Virus record (IMG/VR): IMGVR_UViG_2675903313_000008
Length of the DNA stretch: 12,161 nucleotides
From: a virus
Taxonomy: Duplodnaviria; Heunggongvirae; Uroviricota; Caudoviricetes
Strand: one strand, 5' to 3'
Numbering within the stretch: the first letter of the stretch is position 1; every line of letters begins with the position of its first letter. The translations under genes were made by a program, and so were the position numbers. Of this stretch, positions 1 to 10,653 are shown piece after piece. Under the pieces are notes generated by a model, which did no database searches, was not told the origin of the DNA, and worked only from the letters and a program-made list of their open reading frames with translations.

Positions 1-693
1 CTGCTGACCGCCAAACTGCTCCGCATCCACCTGCAGCCCCACAATCGCCGTGTTCGGGTAGCACTGTTTCACATCGATGATTTCGGTGTATGACGACCAG
101 AGCGTCTTATTCTGCAGCTGGTCCGGGGTGCTGTCCGCTGTCTCCCGGACCATCCGGATGTTAAAGGGCCGCTCAGGCAGATTCTCCAGAATCACCGACG
201 CCAGGTACTGTGAGGTGGTCTTGCCGTTAATGGTGACATCCTTTTCCGTCACCCAGTTACCGTTACGCTGCAACTGAATCAGCAGTCGGACAGAAGAGGG
301 ATTACGGTCGCCCTTTGAGGTGGTCTCCAACAGTGACTGCACCCCGAAGGTGACCCGCAGGCGGTCAATGTTCGCGGATGTAATGGTGCGCGTTACCGGC
401 TTTGCCTTCGTCACTTCCACGCCCAGTGCGGTTTCCGCCCCGGAGGACTCAAAGCCTTCAGGTGGTGTCTGCTCCTGCTCCCCGGCGCGCCAGACCGCGG
501 TCACACCATGTATCACAGGATTACCGTCCGTGTCCGTCAGCGGGGTTTTGTTCACCAGGATACTCTGCAGCCCCTTCACCGGACCTTCAATCGGCCCTTC
601 ACCAATGGCATCAATCACGCTCATCATCTGCGTGGACTTAAGATTGTCCTTTACCTCAACCGGCGTGTGCGCCCTGCCGCCACCTTTACCCAT
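1..693 (-). CDS. J: Tail tip / host specificity protein J, N-terminal 231 codons only; the rest lies beyond the window start
   Basis: Manual reverse translation from ATG (693-691) gives [38 protein letters not shown]..., which matches my recollection of the lambda gpJ N-terminus ([38 protein letters not shown]). An AGAGGA Shine-Dalgarno sits about 6 nt upstream on the minus strand. The frame stays open to position 1. Confidence 0.85.
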
Positions 694-826
694 AATGTTC
701 CTCTCAATTGGTATTATTAATCGCAGTGATAGGATATTGCACAGCTATTGCGCGATATCATCAGAACGCTGTTTGTTACCCTGTAACCAGCAAGCTCAGT
801 CTGTTAACGGAATTAATGAGGGTTTT

Positions 827-1354
827 ATGAAATGTAAAATCATTGCTGCCATTGCCATGCTGACAGCAGCATCATGCGGATACGCAGCAGAACAGGAAGT
901 CCCAATGAACCTTGTCAGTGCTGACGGAAAAGAAGTCAGCATTGGAAAAATAACCATTCAGGAGACCCCCTACGGTCTGCTGTTCACACCAGCCCTTCAC
1001 TCTCTGTCTGAAGGCATTCATGGTTTTCATGTGCACGAAAAAGGAAATTGCGCCCCGGCACTGAAAGACGGAAAACCGGTCGCAGCATTATCGGCTGGCG
1101 GTCACTTTGACCCGAAAAACACCGGCAAACATCTTGGCCCCTGGTCTCCGGATGGACACCTGGGCGACCTCCCTGCGCTGTTCGTGACGCATGACGGAAA
1201 AGCGAACTACCCGGTCCTGGCCCCGAGACTGAACTCATTAAAAGAGATTAAAGGGCGTTCTCTCATGCTTCATGCTGGCGGTGATAACCATCATGACCAT
1301 CCGGAGCCCCTGGGCGGTGGTGGTGCGAGAATGGCCTGCGGCATCATTCAATAA
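827..1354 (+). CDS. sodC: Periplasmic Cu,Zn superoxide dismutase (SodC family, phage-borne SodCI-like), 175 aa with N-terminal signal peptide
   Basis: The in-frame ATG at 827 is preceded by GAGGG 6 nt upstream. The translation [24 protein letters not shown]... carries the SodC hallmarks [30 protein letters not shown] and [12 protein letters not shown] (metal-binding His/Asp and the disulfide Cys pair). The ORF-track entry 320..1354 is the same frame extended upstream through the antisense of J. Confidence 0.9.
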
Positions 1355-1361
1355 TCAGTCA

Positions 1362-1390
1362 GGTAAGGGGCGGGCCCCTTACCTTTATTC
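1362..1390 (+). terminator. Intrinsic terminator downstream of sodC
   Basis: GGTAAGGGG (1362-1370) pairs with CCCCTTACC (1375-1383) around a 4-nt loop, followed by TTTATT. It starts 8 nt after the sodC stop. Confidence 0.6.
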
Positions 1391-1502
1391 CTCAGGACGA
1401 TAAATCCTTTCTCCCTGAAAAGAACGGCACATCCTCCCTCTCTGAGTTAATGTTTTTGTCGTGACATAAGAATAATTCCTTACACTCAATCTTCGTAACT
1501 CT

Positions 1503-1540
1503 CCCGCAGTTCCTGTCCGTGAGCACTGCGGGATTTTTTA
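1503..1540 (+). terminator. Second plus-strand intrinsic terminator, abutting the 3' end of I
   Basis: CCCGCAGT (1503-1510) pairs with ACTGCGGG (1525-1532) around a 14-nt loop, followed by ATTTTTTATGTTTT. The U-tract is only on the plus strand, so it is oriented for plus-strand transcripts. Confidence 0.5.
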
Positions 1541-1544
1541 TGTT

Positions 1545-2225
1545 TTATGCCTGCCGCCCGATAACCACCACCTTCCCGTCACCGCCTTCATCACGGGTAC
1601 TGATGTCCTGGGAGATTCGCCGGGAGCCAACCAGCATTTCACCGTAAGGCACCGGCATCGGGTTCCCCTGGGCAATCATGTTATCCAGCGAGGAAAAGTA
1701 CGTGTTCTGTCTGCCGTTATCCGTTGCGCGGTAATCCGGTGTTTTTGCCTTCGGGGCCAGCATCTGGGCCACACCGCCCAGAATCATGCTGGCTCCAAGT
1801 GAAAACAGCATCGTGGTGGCAGAAAAACCACCGGCTGCCAGGGCTGAACCCCATAACGCCATTGATGCCCCGGCAGTGAAGAAAGAGCCCACGATGGCTG
1901 CCGCCCCCAGCACAATCTGCAGTCCACCCTTTCCGGCCCCGGCCAGTCGCGGCACAATGTGGATGACCGTTCCCTCACCCAGCTGTTCGTGAAGACGGGC
2001 GTACACCGCCTCCGGTGCCGTGTCCTCACCGCGAATACGTATCTGGTACCAGCCTTCGTTCATCTGACGGCGGAATCCCGGCATCTGCATCGACAGGGCA
2101 CGAATGGCTTCCGCTGCCGTGTTCACATACAGGCTGAGGCGGCGGCCAAATCGTTGTAAATCCCCGTGAAGGCAGATACGTGCCAGTGGCGGTGACGCCA
2201 GGCTGAATGCGTTCGTCGTTGCCAT
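1545..2225 (-). CDS. I: Tail tip assembly protein I (226 aa)
   Basis: ORF translation MATTNAFSLASPPLARICLHGDLQRFGRR...GASMILGGVAQMLAPKAKTP...NTYFSSLDNM matches my recollection of lambda gpI. ATG at 2225-2223, TAA stop at 1547-1545. Confidence 0.85.
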   Translation of the reverse strand: MATTNAFSLASPPLARICLHGDLQRFGRRLSLYVNTAAEAIRALSMQMPGFRRQMNEGWYQIRIRGEDTAPEAVYARLHEQLGEGTVIHIVPRLAGAGKGGLQIVLGAAAIVGSFFTAGASMALWGSALAAGGFSATTMLFSLGASMILGGVAQMLAPKAKTPDYRATDNGRQNTYFSSLDNMIAQGNPMPVPYGEMLVGSRRISQDISTRDEGGDGKVVVIGRQA

Positions 2226-2866
2226 TTTTCGGAATACCTCTCCCGTTTACTCAGTTGTTCAGGCAGATGGTGAAGCAGCTCACCGTTGCCGCAGTAAATG
2301 GCGGCATGATTGGCCACCGATGCGCCAAAGCAGCACAGCAGGATATCGCCCGCCTGTGCAGAGGACAGGGGCACCCGGTAAAAGCCGGTGACCGCCATAT
2401 TGTCCAGGTAAAGGTTCTGACCGTTACGCCACCAGTCATCCTCACGCTCAAAATCCGGCATATCAATTCCCGCCAGATGGTATGCATCCCGGAACAGCGT
2501 GTAACAGTCCGTCACCCCGTGCTCAAAGCGCCGTCCTGTCAGATGTGGCACACAGCGGAATTTATGAATTTCCCCCCGGCAGACCAGCCACCAGGACAGT
2601 GCACTTTTTATCTGCAGCCGCCGGTCGGCCTCGCTCAGCCAGGGCAGACCACCGGGGTGGCTGTGGACCAGCGCCACAATCTCCCCCTGCATCTCTGCCC
2701 GCAGCCAGTCTTCCGGTGCAATACGAAAATACGCCTCCGGCTCTGCAGAGATATTCACACAAGGGATATACCGCTCCCCCTCCGGCGTTCTCACCACGAA
2801 GCCGCACGACTCCGCAGGCACACACCGCCGGGCATGCGCCAGAATCGCTGATTCAGTCTGTGTCAT
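2123..2866 (-). CDS. K: Tail tip assembly protein K, full length (247 aa); JAMM/MPN-like N-terminal half plus NlpC/P60-like C-terminal half
   Basis: From ATG at 2866-2864 the translation is MTQTESAILAHARRC...VHSHPGGLPWLSEADRR (JAMM-type HxH...S..D motif) ...DCYTLFRDAYHLAG...HAAIY (Cys/His of a C40-type peptidase). The track ORF 2123..3127 is the same frame with an 87-codon upstream extension that overlaps L. Confidence 0.85.
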   Translation of the reverse strand: MTQTESAILAHARRCVPAESCGFVVRTPEGERYIPCVNISAEPEAYFRIAPEDWLRAEMQGEIVALVHSHPGGLPWLSEADRRLQIKSALSWWLVCRGEIHKFRCVPHLTGRRFEHGVTDCYTLFRDAYHLAGIDMPDFEREDDWWRNGQNLYLDNMAVTGFYRVPLSSAQAGDILLCCFGASVANHAAIYCGNGELLHHLPEQLSKRERYSEKWQRRTHSAWRHRHWHVSAFTGIYNDLAAASACM

Positions 2867-2876
2867 AAACCGGGAT

Positions 2877-3575
2877 TTACTGCGAAAGTTTGTTAATGGA
2901 AAGGAAACCGCCAAAATTGCCGACATTCCTGCGCAGTTCACACCCGCGCATGCACTTGCTGCATCTGTCCTTACGGATATCCGTGGTGGGTTTATCGAAC
3001 TCATCCGCCACAGCCCCGCCCGTGTAACCACACTCATCAGAGCGGTAGGTCCACATACAGGTGTTCGCCAGCATGATGCGACCGGGAAACAGCGCCCCGT
3101 CCGTCTCGGTCGGTGTGGCCAGCACAAACGAGGCCGTCATGGCCGTCAGCTCTGATAACTGCTCCACCACCCAGCGGTCGCTCAGCTCCTGCTCCGGGTC
3201 CGCTTCCGGATTGCCCGCCACAAAATTCACCGCATCCAGAAAACGGGCATACACCCGGCGGCGGACCACCGTGGCCCCCACCAGGCTCTGCAAATCCTCC
3301 GCCATTCCGGTGACCAGACCAAACAGATTGGACACCGTCAGCGACGGGCGGGCACTGCTGCCCTTCCCGCTCATCTCAAAACCGCTGCCGTCAATCGGGT
3401 ATGCCTGATATTGCCGCCCCTGCCAGGTGACCGGCTCCCCTTTTTCATTCAGCTCATTACAGAAAAAATACCGCTCACCACCCTGTACCGTCAGGTCGAT
3501 TTCCCAGAGTACCACCCGCGGTGACTGCTCTGACTTAACCGACTCGTTCAGGCTTTCTTCGTGAATATCCTGCAT
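2877..3575 (-). CDS. L: Minor tail protein L, allele 1 (232 aa)
   Basis: MQDIHEESLNESVKSEQSPRVVLWEIDLT...NVGNFGGFLSINKLSQ matches my recollection of lambda gpL. ATG at 3575 overlaps the stop of the upstream M-like gene; TAA stop at 2879-2877. The C-terminus is Cys-rich. Confidence 0.85.
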   Translation of the reverse strand: MQDIHEESLNESVKSEQSPRVVLWEIDLTVQGGERYFFCNELNEKGEPVTWQGRQYQAYPIDGSGFEMSGKGSSARPSLTVSNLFGLVTGMAEDLQSLVGATVVRRRVYARFLDAVNFVAGNPEADPEQELSDRWVVEQLSELTAMTASFVLATPTETDGALFPGRIMLANTCMWTYRSDECGYTGGAVADEFDKPTTDIRKDRCSKCMRGCELRRNVGNFGGFLSINKLSQ

Positions 3576-3916
3576 CAGTTCACCACCTGCTCTATCGTGC
3601 AACTGAAATCACTGTACCGGGCATTATCCGTGACACTCCACTCACGGCACACAACCCTCACCGTCCGGTTATGTTTCGGCGGTCGCCACAAAAAGGCACG
3701 GTAACCACCATGCCACGATAAAAACTCTTCCAGCCAGCGCCGGGTTGACTCATCCGTCACCCGGAACACCGCCTGAAACGTCTTCAGTTGAGGATTCAGT
3801 CCTGTGGGGCGACGCTGTTCATAACCGTCACCAAACCGCACCCTCACCACCGACGGCTTCTCACTCACCTGCATCCCTTCACGCGGGACCAGATGCAGCG
3901 TTTTTATCTCAGCCAC
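3575..3916 (-). CDS. Minor tail protein M, divergent variant (113 aa, apparent GTG start), copy 1
   Basis: The translation ...SVVRVRFGDGYEQR...GGYRAFLWRPP...EQVVN aligns with the lambda gpM core (RFGDGYSQR...GGWKSFLWTPP...EQVVN) but is clearly diverged. Its stop overlaps the L start. Confidence 0.7.
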   Translation of the reverse strand: MAEIKTLHLVPREGMQVSEKPSVVRVRFGDGYEQRRPTGLNPQLKTFQAVFRVTDESTRRWLEEFLSWHGGYRAFLWRPPKHNRTVRVVCREWSVTDNARYSDFSCTIEQVVN

Positions 3917-4003
3917 TCAGCATTCCTCCGTCACGTCGCATGGACAGCATCACCGCCTGCACCCGCTGGTCAATCAGCTGCACAAGACTGCCTGCCGCCT
4001 CCG
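3909..4003 (-). CDS. 3' end of a tape-measure (H-like) gene, truncated by the N-run; last ~30 codons only
   Basis: The sequence is identical to 5425-5519, where the same frame is the C-terminus (...RRDGGMLSG*) of a long H-like ORF. It stops at 3909-3911 and is cut off at 4003 by the N-run. Confidence 0.5.
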
Positions 4004-4014
4004 NNNNNNNNNNN
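4004..4014. other. Run of 11 N: assembly/scaffold gap
   Basis: Literal n characters in the sequence. The left flank is H-type sequence and the right flank restarts inside K at ACAGCGTGTAACAG. Confidence 0.95.
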
Positions 4015-4387
4015 ACAGCGTGTAACAGTCCGTCACCCCGTGCTCAAAGCGCCGTCCTGTCAGATGTGGCACACAGCGGAATTTATGAATTTCCCCCCGG
4101 CAGACCAGCCACCAGGACAGTGCACTTTTTATCTGCAGCCGCCGGTCGGCCTCGCTCAGCCAGGGCAGACCACCGGGGTGGCTGTGGACCAGCGCCACAA
4201 TCTCCCCCTGCATCTCTGCCCGCAGCCAGTCTTCCGGTGCAATACGAAAATACGCCTCCGGCTCTGCAGAGATATTCACACAAGGGATATACCGCTCCCC
4301 CTCCGGCGTTCTCACCACGAAGCCGCACGACTCCGCAGGCACACACCGCCGGGCATGCGCCAGAATCGCTGATTCTGTCTGTGTCAT
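4015..4387 (-). CDS. K: Tail assembly protein K, 5' fragment (first ~124 codons), truncated at the gap; copy 2
   Basis: ATG at 4387-4385. The translation MTQTESAIL...HGVTDCYTL is identical to the copy-1 K N-terminus and the reading frame runs into the Ns. Confidence 0.7.
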
Positions 4388-4392
4388 TGGAT

Positions 4393-5091
4393 TTACTGCG
4401 AAAGTTTATTAATGGAAAGGAAACCGCCAAAATTAGCCACCATGCCGCGCATCTCACACCCGCGCATGCACTTGCTGCATCTGTCCTTACGGATATCCGT
4501 GGTGGGGGTGTCGAACTCATCCGCCACCGCAGGACCGTTATACCCGCATTCATCTCCCCGGTAATCCCACATACAGGTGTTCGCCAGCATGATGCGACCA
4601 GGAAACAGCGCTCCGTCCGTCTCCGTCGGTGTTGCCAGCACAAACAAGGCTGTCATGGCCGTCAGCTCTGACATCTGCTCCACCACCCAGCGGTCGCTCA
4701 GCTCCTGCTCCGGGTCCGCTTCCGGATTGCCCGCCACAAAATTCACCGCATCCAGAAAACGGGCATACACCCGGCGGCGGACCACCGTGGCCCCCACCAG
4801 GCTCTGCAAATCCTCCGCCATTCCGGTGACCAGACCAAACAGATTGGACACCGTCAGCGACGGGCGGGCACTGCTGCCCTTCCCGCTCATCTCAAAACCG
4901 CTGCCGTCAATCGGGTATGCCTGATATTGCCGCCCCTGCCAGGTGACCGGCTCCCCTTTTTCATTCAGCTCATTACAGAAAAAATACCGCTCACCACCCT
5001 GTACCGTCAGGTCGATTTCCCAGAGTACCACCCGCGGTGACTGCTCTGACTTAACCGACTCGTTCAGGCTTTCTTCGTGAATATCCTGCAT
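4393..5091 (-). CDS. L: Minor tail protein L, allele 2 (232 aa)
   Basis: Same architecture as allele 1. It differs in the C-terminal Cys-containing region (CMWDYRGDECGYNGPAVADEFDTPTT...CEMRGMVANFGG versus CMWTYRSDECGYTGGAVADEFDKPTT...CELRRNVGNFGG). Confidence 0.8.
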   Translation of the reverse strand: MQDIHEESLNESVKSEQSPRVVLWEIDLTVQGGERYFFCNELNEKGEPVTWQGRQYQAYPIDGSGFEMSGKGSSARPSLTVSNLFGLVTGMAEDLQSLVGATVVRRRVYARFLDAVNFVAGNPEADPEQELSDRWVVEQMSELTAMTALFVLATPTETDGALFPGRIMLANTCMWDYRGDECGYNGPAVADEFDTPTTDIRKDRCSKCMRGCEMRGMVANFGGFLSINKLSQ

Positions 5092-5432
5092 CAGTTCACC
5101 ACCTGCTCTATCGTGCAACTGAAATCACTGTACCGGGCATTATCCGTGACACTCCACTCACGGCACACAACCCTCACCGTCCGGTTATGTTTCGGCGGTC
5201 GCCACAAAAAGGCACGGTAACCACCATGCCACGATAAAAACTCTTCCAGCCAGCGCCGGGTTGACTCATCCGTCACCCGGAACACCGCCTGAAACGTCTT
5301 CAGTTGAGGATTCAGTCCTGTGGGGCGACGCTGTTCATAACCGTCACCAAACCGCACCCTCACCACCGACGGCTTCTCACTCACCTGCATCCCTTCACGC
5401 GGGACCAGATGCAGCGTTTTTATCTCAGCCAC
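5091..5432 (-). CDS. Minor tail protein M, divergent variant, copy 2 (113 aa)
   Basis: Protein identical to the 3575..3916 product. Confidence 0.7.
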   Translation of the reverse strand: MAEIKTLHLVPREGMQVSEKPSVVRVRFGDGYEQRRPTGLNPQLKTFQAVFRVTDESTRRWLEEFLSWHGGYRAFLWRPPKHNRTVRVVCREWSVTDNARYSDFSCTIEQVVN

Positions 5433-6670
5433 TCAGCATTCCTCCGTCACGTCGCATGGACAGCATCACCGCCTGCACCCGCTGGTCAATCAGCTGCACA
5501 AGACTGCCTGCCGCCTCCGGCCCTATCTGGCCATTAGTCCCGTCATTCTGAATGGCGATGTGGTAGACCGGGGAATACACCAGACCCGCACTACCGTTCA
5601 TACTACCCACGGCGCGTACGCCCAGCGAGCCATCCGCCGCCCGGGTCAGGGGCATAATGGCTTCAGGTCCGGCTTCCCCCATCAGCCCGGCCCCTTTTGC
5701 AAAGGCAAAGTACGTGGGCGTGTCCACAATGCTGTTGCTGTACGCGCTCAGGTTTGCCGAGGTATACACGCCGCCTTTTGCATTGACCACCGCACCGCCC
5801 AGCCAGTCACCAATGCTGCCAAGAAATCCTCCCGCACCGGACATACCGTTTGCCGCCGTCTTGATCCCGTTGACAATCGCGGCATTCATAAGGACTTTTG
5901 AGATTTCCTGCAGTACGGATGAGGCCCAGTTGCGCCATTCCACTTTGTTTCCGTTCAGCATCTCCGTGATGTTATTCACCAGTCCTGAAATCCCCTCAGT
6001 CGCCAGCTGTGCTGCCTGAGAGGCGTAATCGGACGCATTATCCACCCAGTTACTGAGCCCCTCCTGCAAGCCTTTCTGCCAGTCCGCACGCTGCGCATCC
6101 GATTCGGCATAAAAAGTTTCCTGGTCTTTAAGGCGTTCACTCAGATACTGCGCGTTCTGTGCCAGAGCCTGTCTGTAAAAATCCTCACTGATATCCCCGG
6201 TCTGATACTGAGACTGAAGGTCCGCATCCTTCTGGCGGAAGCTGTCGCGGATCTGCTGCAACTCCCGCATGCGTTCCCTGGCTCGTTCCCCCTGCCCGTA
6301 CCCCAGCAGTTCAGATTCATTTGATGCACGCGCAGCCACATTATCATTCTTCAGGGTCTCTTCCCGGTACCGCAACTGTTCCCGGATTTTTTGCTGGTCA
6401 ATCAGGGCCGCGTTACGCAGCAGTTCCTGCTTCTGCATCTCCGTCAGGGTTTTCAGTTCGCCCTGCGCAGTCTGGTACTTCAGCTTCGCCAGCTCTGTAT
6501 TCTGACCCGCCAGTGCCAGTTGCTCTTTCTGCTGCTTCAGTAGCCGGGAAAAACTGTCTTCCGCTTTTTCCGTCTCTGATTTTCCACCCCGGGATTTAGG
6601 TTTGTTCGCCTCGTTATTACGCCAGGCTTCCAGAGCATTACTGATATAACGCTGTCTCGCCTCCTGATAC
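5425..6670 (-). CDS. Tape measure protein, H-like variant, C-terminal ~415 codons; 5' end cut off at the single N
   Basis: The translation is rich in coiled-coil Q/E/K/R/L repeats (LKQQKEQLALAGQNTELAKLKYQ...) and ends with a Gly-rich tail ...HIAIQNDGTNGQIGPEA...MRRDGGMLSG, parallel to the lambda-like H C-terminus in this window (...NNHVVIQNDGTNGQAGPQ...MRDGGVFSGGRR). The track ORF 5425..7044 joins it through the N to the K fragment and is not a real protein. Confidence 0.7.
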
Positions 6671-6671
6671 N
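6671..6671. other. Single N marking a second join between unrelated sequences
   Basis: Left of it is the interior of the H-like gene; right of it the sequence restarts at exactly the same K-internal position (ACAGCGTGTAACAG) as after the first N-run. Confidence 0.85.
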
Positions 6672-7044
6672 ACAGCGTGTAACAGTCCGTCACCCCGTGC
6701 TCAAAGCGCCGTCCTGTCAGATGTGGCACACAGCGGAATTTATGAATTTCCCCCCGGCAGACCAGCCACCAGGACAGTGCACTTTTTATCTGCAGCCGCC
6801 GGTCGGCCTCGCTCAGCCAGGGCAGACCACCGGGGTGGCTGTGGACCAGCGCCACAATCTCCCCCTGCATCTCTGCCCGCAGCCAGTCTTCCGGTGCAAT
6901 ACGAAAATACGCCTCCGGCTCTGCAGAGATATTCACACAAGGGATATACCGCTCCCCCTCCGGCGTTCTCACCACGAAGCCGCACGACTCCGCAGGCACA
7001 CACCGCCGGGCATGCGCCAGAATCGCTGATTCTGTCTGTGTCAT
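6672..7044 (-). CDS. K: Tail assembly protein K, 5' fragment (first ~124 codons), copy 3
   Basis: ATG at 7044-7042; same MTQTESAIL...DCYTL translation, truncated at the N. Confidence 0.7.
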
Positions 7045-7740
7045 TGGATTTACTGCGAAAGTTTATTAATGGAAAGGAAACCGCCAAAATTAGCCACCAT
7101 GCCGCGCATCTCACACCCGCGCATGCACTTGCTGCATCTGTCCTTACGGATATCCGTGGTGGGGGTGTCGAACTCATCCGCCACCGCAGGACCGTTATAC
7201 CCGCATTCATCTCCCCGGTAATCCCACATACAGGTGTTCGCCAGCATGATGCGACCAGGAAACAGCGCTCCGTCCGTCTCCGTCGGTGTTGCCAGCACAA
7301 ACAAGGCTGTCATGGCCGTCAGCTCTGACATCTGCTCCACCACCCAGCGGTCGCTCAGCTCCTGCTCCGGGTCCGCTTCCGGATTGCCCGCCACAAAATT
7401 CACCGCATCCAGAAAACGGGCATACACCCGGCGGCGGACCACCGTGGCCCCCACCAGGCTCTGCAGGTCCTCCGCCATTCCGGTGACCAGACCGAACAGA
7501 TTCGACACCGTCAGCGACGGGCGGGCACTGCTGCCCTTCCCGTTCATCTCAAAGCCACTGCCGTCAATCGGGTATGCCTGATATTGCCGCCCCTGCCAGG
7601 TGACCGCCTCCCCTTTTTCATTCAGCTCATTGCAGAAAAAATACCGCTCACCACCCTGTACCGTCAGGTCGATTTCCCAGAGTACCACCCGCGGTGACTG
7701 CTCTGATTTAACCGACTCGTTCAGACTTTCTTCGTGAATA
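6672..7740 (-). repeat. Repeat unit copy 3 (K 5' half + L), diverging toward the lambda-like M
   Basis: 6672 to about 7450 is nearly identical to 4015 to about 4790. Substitutions accumulate toward the 5' end of L, and beyond 7748 the sequence is unrelated to copies 1 and 2. Confidence 0.8.
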
Positions 7741-7748
7741 TCCTGCAT
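7050..7748 (-). CDS. L: Minor tail protein L, allele 3 (232 aa)
   Basis: MQDIHEESLNES...; closest to allele 2 but with scattered substitutions (e.g. EAVTWQ, FEMNGKG). ATG at 7748 overlaps the M stop (ATGA). Confidence 0.85.
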   Translation of the reverse strand: MQDIHEESLNESVKSEQSPRVVLWEIDLTVQGGERYFFCNELNEKGEAVTWQGRQYQAYPIDGSGFEMNGKGSSARPSLTVSNLFGLVTGMAEDLQSLVGATVVRRRVYARFLDAVNFVAGNPEADPEQELSDRWVVEQMSELTAMTALFVLATPTETDGALFPGRIMLANTCMWDYRGDECGYNGPAVADEFDTPTTDIRKDRCSKCMRGCEMRGMVANFGGFLSINKLSQ

Positions 7749-8077
7749 CAGTTCACCACCTGCTTAAACTCGGCACTGAATTCAACCCGCAGCATGCGAA
7801 CCCGTGATGACCAGGCGGCACTGGTCACCTTTATCTGCCGGTATGCATAAGGAGGTGTCCACAGAAACGCCTTCCAGCCACCGTGCTCTGCCAGGAATGC
7901 CTCCAGATGTCGGGCCTCCTCCCGGGTCACGGAAAGCGTCACACGGTATGTTTTCAGGTCAGCATTCAGCCCCGCCGCCATACGCTGCGAATACCCGTCA
8001 CCAAAACGCACTTCACGCACCGATGGCTGCGAGTTCACCTCCATATCCGGCTTCACTTTCCAGCGAAATGTTTTCAT
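7748..8077 (-). CDS. M: Minor tail protein M, lambda-like (109 aa)
   Basis: MKTFRWKVKPDMEVNSQPSVREVRFGDGYSQR...FLWTPPYAYRQIKV...RVEFSAEFKQVVN is near-identical to lambda gpM as I recall it. ATG at 8077 overlaps the H stop. Confidence 0.9.
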   Translation of the reverse strand: MKTFRWKVKPDMEVNSQPSVREVRFGDGYSQRMAAGLNADLKTYRVTLSVTREEARHLEAFLAEHGGWKAFLWTPPYAYRQIKVTSAAWSSRVRMLRVEFSAEFKQVVN

Positions 8078-10653
8078 CGCCTGCCTCCGGAAAATACGCC
8101 GCCATCACGCATCTGCGCCTGAATCTCATCCTGCGCCCCCTTGCGGGCCATGTCATACACCGCCTTCATCAGCTGCGGCCCCGCCTGTCCGTTGGTGCCG
8201 TCGTTCTGAATCACCACGTGATTGTTCTGATTAAAATTAATGCCTTCCGTCCGCCGCATCTGCGCCGGACTTCCGGCACCGCCCACATAACCACCTTCCG
8301 CATAGCCCCGCATCAGGCGGTACAGGTTGCCGACGCCAATCCGGCTGGTTGCCTCCTTCGTGAAAACAAACTCCCCGCGATGAACAATCCCCGCAGGCTC
8401 ATATTTGCCGCCCGTCCCCGTAAATCCTCCGGTCGCGAAATGGAAGTTCGCCGCCGCAGCCTGAATGGCCGTCCCCGTGGAGGCAGACGCCCCACCACCG
8501 AAAGCACCACCCATGGCGCTGCCAATACTCCCGACAATCCCCACCATGGCCTGCTTCAGAAAAATCTCTGTCAGCATGGAGAGCACAGAACGGGTGAAAC
8601 CACGCCAGCTCTGTTCGCTGCCGGTCAGCATCGCTGCCATATTCTGTGCAATACCGTCAAAGGTCTGCGTGGCCACGCTTTTAACCTGCGAAAAACTGTC
8701 CGTCACACTTTCCGCCCACTCGCCCCAGCCGGACTTCAGCCCGGCCATCCAGCTGCCACGAAGCTGGTCCTCCGCAGACCAGGTGTTCTTCAGTGCAGAT
8801 GTGGCCTTCGCCAGCGCATCCGGATTATCACCGTACACGTCACGAAGGCGCTGCGATTCCGACTCCCGCTGTGCCTGACGGTCCGTCAGCCCCCGGGCTT
8901 TTGCGCTGATTGCAGCCTGCTTCGCACTCTGCTGCTGTTCAAACCGCACAGCCTGATTTGCCAGCTCATTCAGCCGTTTCTGGTATTCAACCTTGTCACC
9001 CAGGTCAGCCAGCTGGCGTTTGTACTCCAGCGTCTCTTGCTCATGGGCCAGCAGGGATTTCTCCTGTGCAGACAGCTGGCGACGTTGCGCCGCCTCCTCC
9101 AGTACCGCGAACTGACTCTCCGCCTTCCACAAATCCCGGCGCTGCTGGCTGATTTTCTCATTCGCTCCGCTGTGCTTCTCCAGCGTCCGGAGCTCGGTTT
9201 CAAGCGCCAGCAGGGCAGCATGCGCCTGGTCTTCCTGACGCTCACCGGCTGACACTTTGACTCCTGACGACTTCGGCTTTTTCAGCGTCGATTCATAATC
9301 CTTTTTCGCCGCCGCCATCAGCGTGTTGTAATCCGCCTGCAGGATTTTCCCGTCTTTCAGGGCCTTATTCAGCTCTTCCTGCCGGTTAGTATATTTCTCC
9401 AGCGGCGTCAGCAGACGCTCATACGCCTTCTGCGCCTCTCCGGTATACTTCAGCCGTGATGCGTCCCGTTCGGCCCGGTCCCTGGTAGCCAGTTCACCGG
9501 CTTTTTCCATATCTGACTGCAGCGTGGCCGCTGCCAGCCCCAGACGGGCATTTTCCCGGTCATTCCATGCGCCCTGAAGGTTGGCCCGGAAAGAGGCGGT
9601 TTTTCCCCGGCGCTGGCTCCGGCTCTGGTACCACTGCCATTTTTTATCCGCCTCATCAAATGCCTTCTGTGCACTGGCGAGCATATCCGCTGAGGACTCA
9701 GGACGACCGATATCCAGAATGGCATCCCACATCGATTTGAATGCCTTCCCTGTTTTATCCGCCCAGGTCTCCAGTGTTCCCATGTTTTCTTTCAGGCGAC
9801 GGGTCTGCTCATCAAAGCCTTTCGTGGCGATATCGTTCGCCGCCTGCAATGCCCCGGCCTCGTCTCCGGAACGCTGCAGCTGTGCAACATACGCAATCTG
9901 CTCTGCCGTCACGTTACGGAACTGGCGCGCCATCGCCATCAGTCCCGACGTCGGGTCGGTGGTCAGTTTTCCGAAAGCCTCTGCAACCTTGTCCACCTCC
10001 ACACCGGATGCAGAAGCAAAACGCGCGACACTCTGGTTGATGGCATCAAACTGTTCACCACCACGCACACCGGCATTCACCAGGGCTGCCAGTGACTCAC
10101 TCGCCTGGTTAAACGTCAGCCCTGCGGCCTGTCCGGCTCTGGAGAGCGTCAGCATGCGATCGGCAGTCAGTCCGGACTGATTACCGGAAAGAACCAGGGT
10201 TTTATTAAACGCTGAAAGCGTGGAATCCCCCTGGTACCAGGCGTACGCCAGCGCACCTGTCGCCACCGCCAGCGAGGTGACCCCGACCATCGGCAGGGTG
10301 ATCGCACCGGCAAGTCCCCTGAACATGGGGATCATCCCGCCGAAGGAGTCCTTCACCTGACCGCCCTGTTGCAGCAGGATCAGCCAGGGATTCTGACCAC
10401 CGGCAAGCTGCGTGGCGATATCCGTAAACTGTGCGGGCAGGGTTCGCATGGCCGCTTTATACTGCCCGACGGAAATCCCGGCTTTTTGTGCAGCCAGCGC
10501 CTGGCGGCTCAGGCCCTGTTCAACAGCACTGGCGGTTTTTCTGGCGTCAGTCTCCAGTCCGGAAAAATGACGCCTTACCCGGCTCATCTGCTCATCGAAA
10601 CGGACCGCATCCAGACTCAGGTCAATAACAAGATCACCAACCGGCTGGGACAT
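8074..10653 (-). CDS. H: Tail tape measure protein H, lambda-like (859 aa)
   Basis: MSQPVGDLVIDLSLDAVRFDEQMSRVRRHFSG...QYKAAMRTLPAQFTDIATQLAGGQNPWLILLQQGGQVKDSFGG... matches lambda gpH along its length. A strong GGAGGTG Shine-Dalgarno precedes the ATG at 10653. Confidence 0.9.
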   Translation of the reverse strand: MSQPVGDLVIDLSLDAVRFDEQMSRVRRHFSGLETDARKTASAVEQGLSRQALAAQKAGISVGQYKAAMRTLPAQFTDIATQLAGGQNPWLILLQQGGQVKDSFGGMIPMFRGLAGAITLPMVGVTSLAVATGALAYAWYQGDSTLSAFNKTLVLSGNQSGLTADRMLTLSRAGQAAGLTFNQASESLAALVNAGVRGGEQFDAINQSVARFASASGVEVDKVAEAFGKLTTDPTSGLMAMARQFRNVTAEQIAYVAQLQRSGDEAGALQAANDIATKGFDEQTRRLKENMGTLETWADKTGKAFKSMWDAILDIGRPESSADMLASAQKAFDEADKKWQWYQSRSQRRGKTASFRANLQGAWNDRENARLGLAAATLQSDMEKAGELATRDRAERDASRLKYTGEAQKAYERLLTPLEKYTNRQEELNKALKDGKILQADYNTLMAAAKKDYESTLKKPKSSGVKVSAGERQEDQAHAALLALETELRTLEKHSGANEKISQQRRDLWKAESQFAVLEEAAQRRQLSAQEKSLLAHEQETLEYKRQLADLGDKVEYQKRLNELANQAVRFEQQQSAKQAAISAKARGLTDRQAQRESESQRLRDVYGDNPDALAKATSALKNTWSAEDQLRGSWMAGLKSGWGEWAESVTDSFSQVKSVATQTFDGIAQNMAAMLTGSEQSWRGFTRSVLSMLTEIFLKQAMVGIVGSIGSAMGGAFGGGASASTGTAIQAAAANFHFATGGFTGTGGKYEPAGIVHRGEFVFTKEATSRIGVGNLYRLMRGYAEGGYVGGAGSPAQMRRTEGINFNQNNHVVIQNDGTNGQAGPQLMKAVYDMARKGAQDEIQAQMRDGGVFSGGRR

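Follow-up and report, generated by a model that had tools for sequence, protein, structure and literature searches.

A sodC-F moron between genes I and J of a lambdoid tail operon, adjoining a promoterless PasB homologue

Positions 694 to 1438 of the window (the whole 12,161-nucleotide stretch of DNA that was analysed) very probably form a self-contained sodC-F moron, lying in the spacer between tail genes I and J, expressed in the lysogen from its own promoter and encoding an exported superoxide dismutase (SOD). The gene itself is already known: sodC-F was published in 2008 and is routinely annotated in hundreds of genomes. The locus carries little weight as a discovery, and its practical value is that of a marker. 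The one point of fresh interest is the anatomy of the I-J slot, a cargo slot with a resident small RNA (sRNA) gene, pasB, whose promoter has been displaced by sodC and whose body and terminator have been retained.

The tail operon on the minus strand of the window is of the lambda type, and K (with JAB and NlpC/P60 domains) and then L come after I along it (Table 1). The start codon of J occupies positions 693-691 and the stop codon of I positions 1545-1547, both on the minus strand, and the I-J gap measured between them, 694-1544, is 851 bp long, in line with the approximately 850 bp of the original prediction. The accompanying claim that the two genes overlap in lambda was wrong, since in that phage 60 bp separate the end of I (15444) from the start of J (15505). 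A gpJ annotation is present in the identical locus L001, and the RefSeq annotation has a shorter version of gene I, 1545-2126. The ribosome-binding site of J, GAGAGG, is the complement of 700-705 and falls within the J/sodC spacer. The gap had been predicted to carry a plus-strand gene for a Cu,Zn SOD, convergent with I and provided with a Shine-Dalgarno sequence, a signal peptide and a downstream terminator, and all of these were found in it.

Table 1. Features of the I-J region of the window
Feature	Position	Strand	Evidence
J, 5' part, first 231 codons	1..693	-	Pfam FNIII-A_GpJ 7e-42; truncated by the left end of the window
Divergent J/sodC spacer, 39.8% GC	694..826	.	Sequence, GC
Shine-Dalgarno GAGGG of sodC	818..822	+	Sequence; 4 nt 5' of ATG
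sodC (sodC-F1 type, Leu112), 175-aa Cu,Zn superoxide dismutase precursor	827..1354, including stop	+	Pfam Sod_Cu, PDB matches, ligands
Signal peptide, residues 1-20	827..886	+	Translation; LipoP and fractionation in PMC2569942
First sodC terminator hairpin	1361..1384	+	10-bp stem, -17.4 kcal/mol, z = -3.1, tail TTTATTCC, modest U-tract
Promoterless PasB sRNA homologue	1439..1544 (body ~1441-1541)	+	Alignments; terminator 1502-1533 plus TTTTTT
Second terminator, 9-bp stem	1502..1533, then TTTTTT 1534-1539	+	Folding
Tail assembly gene I	1545..2225 (longest ORF)	-	Pfam Lambda_tail_I 5.6e-16; annotation in L001

The identity of the sodC product was established by several comparisons. Its match to Sod_Cu (PF00080) scored 111.9 bits, with 28.9 as the cut-off, and took in positions 3-133 of the 133 in the profile. 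Among solved structures in the PDB, bacterial Cu,Zn SODs matched it at 1e-56 to 1e-62. The 175-aa protein was 60% identical to SodCIII, 58-59% identical to SodCI and 100% identical to ECs_1989 of Escherichia coli O157:H7 Sakai. Alignment with SodCI and SodCIII showed that H68, H70, H93, H102, H111, D114, H149, C75, C171 and R168 are invariant, and the same ligand, disulfide and arginine residues were matched in the alignments to the solved structures. Among these residues we take four histidines to be the copper ligands and three histidines plus the aspartate to be the zinc ligands, one histidine bridging both metals; C75 and C171 would form the disulfide, and R168 would be the active-site arginine. 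The Sod_Cu match and the retention of every metal ligand bear out the assignment to the Cu,Zn SODs.

The predicted signal peptide was present, and its description has to be amended, as the leader contains a lipobox as well, AASC (residues 14-17, nt 866-877), and the protein is partly lipid-anchored (PMC2569942). Two cleavage options are predicted from the translation, either processing by signal peptidase I after A20 or processing at the lipobox to yield a lipidated Cys17. This agrees with the published analysis of the SodC-F leader, in which LipoP returned both a signal peptidase I site (20/21) and the AASC lipobox, and in which fractionation recovered SodC-F partly as a soluble periplasmic protein and partly bound to membranes (PMC2569942).

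The identical protein ECs_1989 is encoded by prophage Sp10 of Sakai, and the correspondence extends to the whole 851-bp gap, which is 99.5% identical to the I-J gap of Sp10. The gene order in Sp10 is I (ECs_1987), sodC (ECs_1989) and J (ECs_1990), likewise with an 851-bp gap, at 1963484-1964334 of NC_002695.2, and the geometry is the same in both, with 133 bp between sodC and J and 190 bp between sodC and I. Nucleotide 335 of the gene is a T (Leu112), which corresponds to the SodC-F1 form. No substantive difference from sodC-F of O157:H7 was found, the window being derived from another assembly.

The published properties of sodC-F apply to the very same gene. D'Orazio et al. 2008 found sodC-F to be expressed in log-phase, stationary and anaerobic cultures and under no RpoS control (PMC2569942). 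SodC-F is a dimer with a specific activity of 19380 U/mg, three times that of the chromosomal SodC, and it withstands proteinase K as well as EDTA; it was relatively enriched in bacteria within Caco-2 cells, and sodC-F deletion mutants survived H2O2 more poorly (PMC2569942). The proposal that the gene marks the prophage as a lysogenic-conversion element holds as regards expression in lysogens and peroxide resistance, both reported for the identical gene (PMC2569942). Its virulence side is narrower: the phenotype of E. coli sodC-F is limited to in vitro survival of H2O2, and a virulence role is established only for Salmonella sodCI, the role of Gifsy-2 SodCI in animals being established in Salmonella according to the account given in PMC2569942.

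The original prediction treated the whole gap as the sodC insert. Alignments established that 694-1438 is indeed sodC-specific, and that 1439-1544 belongs instead to a resident PasB sRNA gene. The latter segment is 90-95% identical to an element present in sodC-less prophages (alleles of Stx phages and of commensal strains) and 68% identical to PasB of strain E2348/69. In the sodC-less spacers this element comprises a promoter, TTCACA-16-TATAAT (11/12), a transcript of ~85-100 nt and an intrinsic terminator, on the strand opposite to the tail genes. The resident spacer unit was found in 1776 of the 5426 complete E. coli genomes and is annotated in none of them. The homology between the window and these spacers breaks exactly between the -10 box of pasB and the transcribed part, so that the window copy has sodC sequence in place of the promoter. 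The promoter TTCACA-16-TATAAT is missing in the window, and a relaxed scan of 1350-1470 gave no site of at least 7/12. An Rfam scan of 600-1700 (E <= 1) returned sub-threshold noise only (STnc400 with 23 bits versus 80, and one snoRNA); the sodC-less spacers likewise gave only noise, and PasB is absent from Rfam.

PasB of enteropathogenic E. coli E2348/69 is an 83-nt RNA encoded at 1466343-1466261 of NC_011601 (PMC8550237 table S6), a location that we found to lie between I and J. It was validated by Northern blotting and was strongly reduced in a delta-hfq strain (PMC8550237), and its probe sequence (PMC8550237 table S6) matches the terminator stem. [quoted passage not shown] In O157 Sakai, three Hfq-CRAC peaks have been reported, EcOnc22, EcOnc23 and EcOnc24, of which EcOnc22 corresponds to an RNA of ~85 nt that is destabilised without Hfq (PMC4104026). 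All three lie between I and J, in Sp15, Sp14 and Sp11. With AgvB as the anchor, the published EcOnc coordinates proved to be offset by ~+130-140 nt with respect to the current record, and with this offset the three peaks land on the PasB-like body. EcOnc22-24 are probably PasB alleles, an assignment that we make with moderate confidence. Segment 1439-1544 of the window occupies the same place as PasB of E2348/69 and the probable EcOnc22-24 alleles, immediately beyond the stop codon of I and in antisense orientation relative to the tail operon. A separate candidate for the spacer RNA, the anti-GcvB sRNA AgvB, was rejected, as its map position in Sp10 is near the Q/moron region; it sits downstream of pR' (PMC4104026).

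Lacking the promoter, 1439-1544 is filed here as an apparent promoterless remnant and not as a functional pasB gene, and the simplest reading of this remnant would be that it provides a strong terminator behind the first one and shields I, K and L from transcripts running in the sense of sodC. It seems unlikely to us, if worth weighing, that the PasB-like body is still made as an Hfq-binding 3'-UTR sRNA of the sodC transcript, generated by read-through and a stop at 1539, possibly with processing. Were this so, the phage would have a regulatory RNA under the sodC promoter, and oxidative-stress defence would be coupled to the PasB targets. The U-tract of the first terminator (TTTATTCC) is modest, so that some transcripts may run on into the PasB body; the hairpin itself, however, is stable (-17.4 kcal/mol), and the body has no promoter upstream. 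The body and its strong terminator are 97% identical between Sp10 and the window, which would fit with a retained function, but the sodC-bearing loci are mutually 97.7-100% identical, so that this retention is uninformative on selection. Finally, the promoter-bearing homologues do yield Hfq-dependent RNAs of ~83-85 nt, whereas in Sakai the Hfq-CRAC table places peaks between I and J of Sp11, Sp14 and Sp15 and none near the sodC-linked copy in Sp10.

The homology to sodC-less phages ends exactly at the ATG of J, which sets the left edge of the module, and no direct or inverted repeats suggestive of transposition were found at the module edges, 694 and 1438. Stx1a and Stx2c phages, commensal prophages and several E. 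coli prophages (including loci L002 and L006-L010) have the same I and J flanks and no sodC, with 238-343 bp between the two genes. The AT-richness that had first been judged by eye was confirmed by composition. The GC content was 52.8% for sodC and 39.8% and 45.8% for the two spacers, against 58-60% for the flanking tail genes, and sodC had a GC3 of 50.9%, where the tail genes taken together had 65.6% (Fisher p = 1e-4). The sodC-specific segment 694-1438 had a GC content of 50.5%, compared with a mean of 57.3% (sd 2.7) for the window, and the lowest-GC 745-bp stretch of the whole 12 kb begins at 681, on the insert.

The low GC of sodC and of both spacers relative to the flanks would also be expected if the entire 851 bp were a single foreign insertion into an I/J junction that otherwise overlaps. 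This is very improbable, given the 60-bp gap in lambda and the spacers of the sodC-less relatives, and it is refuted by the alignments, in which 1439-1544 is 90-95% identical to the resident spacer. A module confined to 694-1438 remains the reading that we adopt, and the empty slot in the relatives, the composition, the conserved ligands and the identity to ECs_1989 together uphold the view of sodC as a horizontally acquired cargo gene, or moron, between I and J and convergent with I. Like the lambdoid morons lom and bor of lambda, it is an extra gene between conserved phage genes, of deviant composition and expressed from the prophage; classical morons of this kind have their own promoter and terminator (Juhala et al. 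2000, as cited in PMC4104026). It differs from lom and bor in its position, antisense inside the tail operon and not downstream of J or pR'.

Regarding expression, the sigma-70 consensus scan of 500-1800 on both strands gave no site of at least 9/12. The best candidate in a relaxed scan was TTGGTA-16-TAGGAT at 708-735 (8/12), with an upstream TG, which we put forward as a guess at the sodC promoter. The upstream region of sodC-F showed promoter activity, not dependent on RpoS, in lacZ fusions mentioned as data not shown (PMC2569942). When the upstream regions of sodC in the window, Fels-1 and Gifsy-2 were aligned, only patchy similarity was observed, with the exception of the J leader. By eye, and by analogy with Salmonella sodCI, a possible PhoP half-site, TGTTTG, was seen at ~772.

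Downstream of the gene, both hairpins fold far better than shuffled sequence. Read on the minus strand, both hairpins lack a U-tract, and late-operon transcription should therefore not be stopped by them. Small open reading frames in 1355-1544 (34-45 aa), located in known RNA or coding sequence, were discarded as unsupported, as were antisense frames inside sodC, which overlap known coding sequence.

That sodC is a silent or decaying passenger, either a pseudogene or a gene expressed only lytically within the late operon, is hardly credible: no strong consensus promoter was detected, but the reading frame is intact with all catalytic residues kept, the gene runs opposite to the late operon, whose transcripts are antisense to it, and the identical gene is expressed in uninduced O157 cultures, with the protein detected and a phenotype (PMC2569942).

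The moron very probably works as follows. In the lysogen, a promoter of its own, within the 133 bp between J and sodC, would drive transcription of sodC against the direction of the tail operon. The signal peptide would direct export of the product, with either cleavage by signal peptidase I or lipidation at Cys17, and the stable SodC dimer would dismutate periplasmic superoxide, conferring greater resistance to exogenous oxidative stress. Plus-strand transcription would be halted by the hairpin at 1361-1384 and then by the pasB terminator at 1502-1539, sparing I, K and L from antisense transcription. During lytic growth, the Q-modified late transcript would cross I and then the gap, antisense to sodC, to reach J. 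This antisense passage is soundly inferred by analogy, from the lambda model taken together with the lack of minus-strand terminators and of a detectable J promoter. As to its origin, the module took the place of the ancestral spacer on the side towards J, pasB promoter included, and came with a J leader of its own.

The closest Salmonella counterpart is found in Fels-1, where sodCIII (STM0924) occupies the same I-J slot on the strand opposite to the tail genes, with 60% protein identity and all ligands conserved. No nucleotide-level match between the window sodC and Fels-1 sodCIII was obtained by blastn. The neighbouring products are 67% (J N-terminus), 70% (I), 72% (L) and 74% (K) identical between Fels-1 and the window, compared with the 60% of SodC. 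Fels-1 differs from the window in having no PasB-like segment, only 53 bp separating the sodCIII stop from the I stop, and its SodCIII has no lipobox Cys17. The J leader is alike in Fels-1 and the window over ~20 nt, and differs in sodC-less E. coli phages. From the shared position and orientation and this leader similarity we infer a single origin, which suggests one old insertion between I and J, passed on afterwards from one lambdoid tail module to another by recombination. For its part, SodCI of Gifsy-2, also a phage-borne Cu,Zn SOD of the dimeric type and 58-59% identical, has a cysteine at the lipobox position. Its gene is likewise antisense in the tail operon, but in a different place, with L on one side and a lom-like gene adjoining M on the other.

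The window as a whole is a scaffold. Runs of N at 4004-4014 and 6671 split it into three pieces, the second and third of which start at the same point inside gene K, and segments 2494-4003, 4015-5519 and 6672-7764 are repeats, 95-99% identical to one another, where the complete reference locus has a single K-L-M set. The window thus consists of three contigs, in a pattern as from different prophages joined by the scaffolder. A 539-aa open reading frame at 5425-7044, which runs across the N, was rejected as an artefact. The first piece (1-4003) contains the entire sodC locus, which is therefore unaffected by the scaffolding.

The distribution of the locus was established among complete E. coli genomes. 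The segment 600-1650 was present at a coverage of at least 80% in 547 of 5426 genomes, in all of which sodC is annotated between the tail assembly protein and gpJ, and two Stx2a-converting phages carry the locus too. The closest complete genome is that of E. coli Z1323HEC0108, whose prophage is 100% identical to the window over this segment. The sodC locus marks the window as coming from a lambdoid prophage of the EHEC/STEC/aEPEC type, and in the closest complete locus it is accompanied by the effector genes nleB2, nleC, nleH and nleF.

The sodC module of the window has taken the place of the pasB promoter. The junction falls exactly at the boundary between the -10 element and the transcript, and what lies beside sodC is a remnant homologous to PasB, the Hfq-dependent prophage sRNA encoded between tail genes I and J in enteropathogenic Escherichia coli (EPEC) E2348/69. 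In the I-J spacers of related prophages lacking sodC at this site (L002, L006, L009 and L010), the PasB unit consisted of a TTCACA-16-TATAAT promoter, a stretch of about 90 nt and a terminator. Of 5,426 complete E. coli genomes, 1,776 had such a unit between I and J of their lambdoid prophages, with as many as 9 sites in a single genome. The unit carried no annotation among the matches listed, and no family for it was found in Rfam.

The I-J gaps of the O157 Sakai prophages Sp15, Sp14 and Sp11 are the sites of EcOnc22, EcOnc23 and EcOnc24, O157 Hfq-CRAC sRNAs of about 85 nt that are Hfq dependent (Tree et al. 2014, PMC4104026). Given a coordinate offset of about +130 to 140 nt between genome versions, these three sRNAs appear to be alleles of PasB. 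For its part, the EPEC study gave EHEC homologues for PasA and PasD1 and none for PasB (PMC8550237).

Near J, the sodC-less spacers also contained a further strong hairpin (for example, CAGGCATCC...GGATGCCTG, -19 kcal/mol), which is followed on the tail-operon strand by TTGTTTTTGT and thus constitutes a terminator-like signal within the late operon, directly ahead of J. The window lacks this hairpin because its place was taken by the sodC module.

At the J end of the module, the leader of J and its ribosome-binding site, which adjoin sodC (window 694-712), resemble those of Salmonella phage Fels-1, which carries sodCIII (L004 3851-3872), both leaders containing the motif CATAAT..GTTCC(C)TCT, whereas the corresponding region of the sodC-less E. 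coli phages is unlike either. This resemblance hints at one common origin for the sodC-J junctions of the window and Fels-1.

Coordinates of the features compared
Feature	Location	Strand	Remark
PasB homologue	window 1439-1544	+	no promoter; terminator included
PasB unit	L006 600-730
PasB unit	L002 3196-3330
PasB unit	L009 962-1058	-
PasB unit	L010 (Sp15) 1095-1230
J-proximal hairpin	L002 3131-3160
J-proximal hairpin	L010 (Sp15) 1041-1066
J-proximal hairpin	equivalent positions in L006/L008
K-N-terminus/L/M block	window 2494-4003, 4015-5519, 6672-7764		95-99% mutual identity
M-region comparison	window 3575-3916 and 5091-5432 vs 7748-8077
Tape-measure C-terminus comparison	window 5425-6670 vs 8074-10653

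The window is a scaffold built from three pieces, with N joins at 4004-4014 and 6671, and pieces two and three share a start point inside tail gene K. The block comprising the K N-terminus, L and M occurs three times in it, compared to once in a complete genome. Assembly or scaffolding has almost certainly created this structure artificially, by mixing tail regions from different prophages. Among the pieces, M is of two kinds (113 and 109 aa) and so is the tape-measure C-terminus, which shows that no fewer than two distinct prophage tail modules contributed to the window. A 539-aa open reading frame (5425-7044), in which the K N-terminus is joined to a tape-measure C-terminus across N, is not real.

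In the closest complete-genome match, E. coli Z1323HEC0108, the prophage whose sodC locus is identical (L001 2944-8549) contains a Lom-family gene 3' of J together with tail-fibre genes, and after these come nleB2, nleC (partial), nleH (frameshifted) and nleF, all of them type III effector genes. It is thus an effector-carrying lambdoid prophage.
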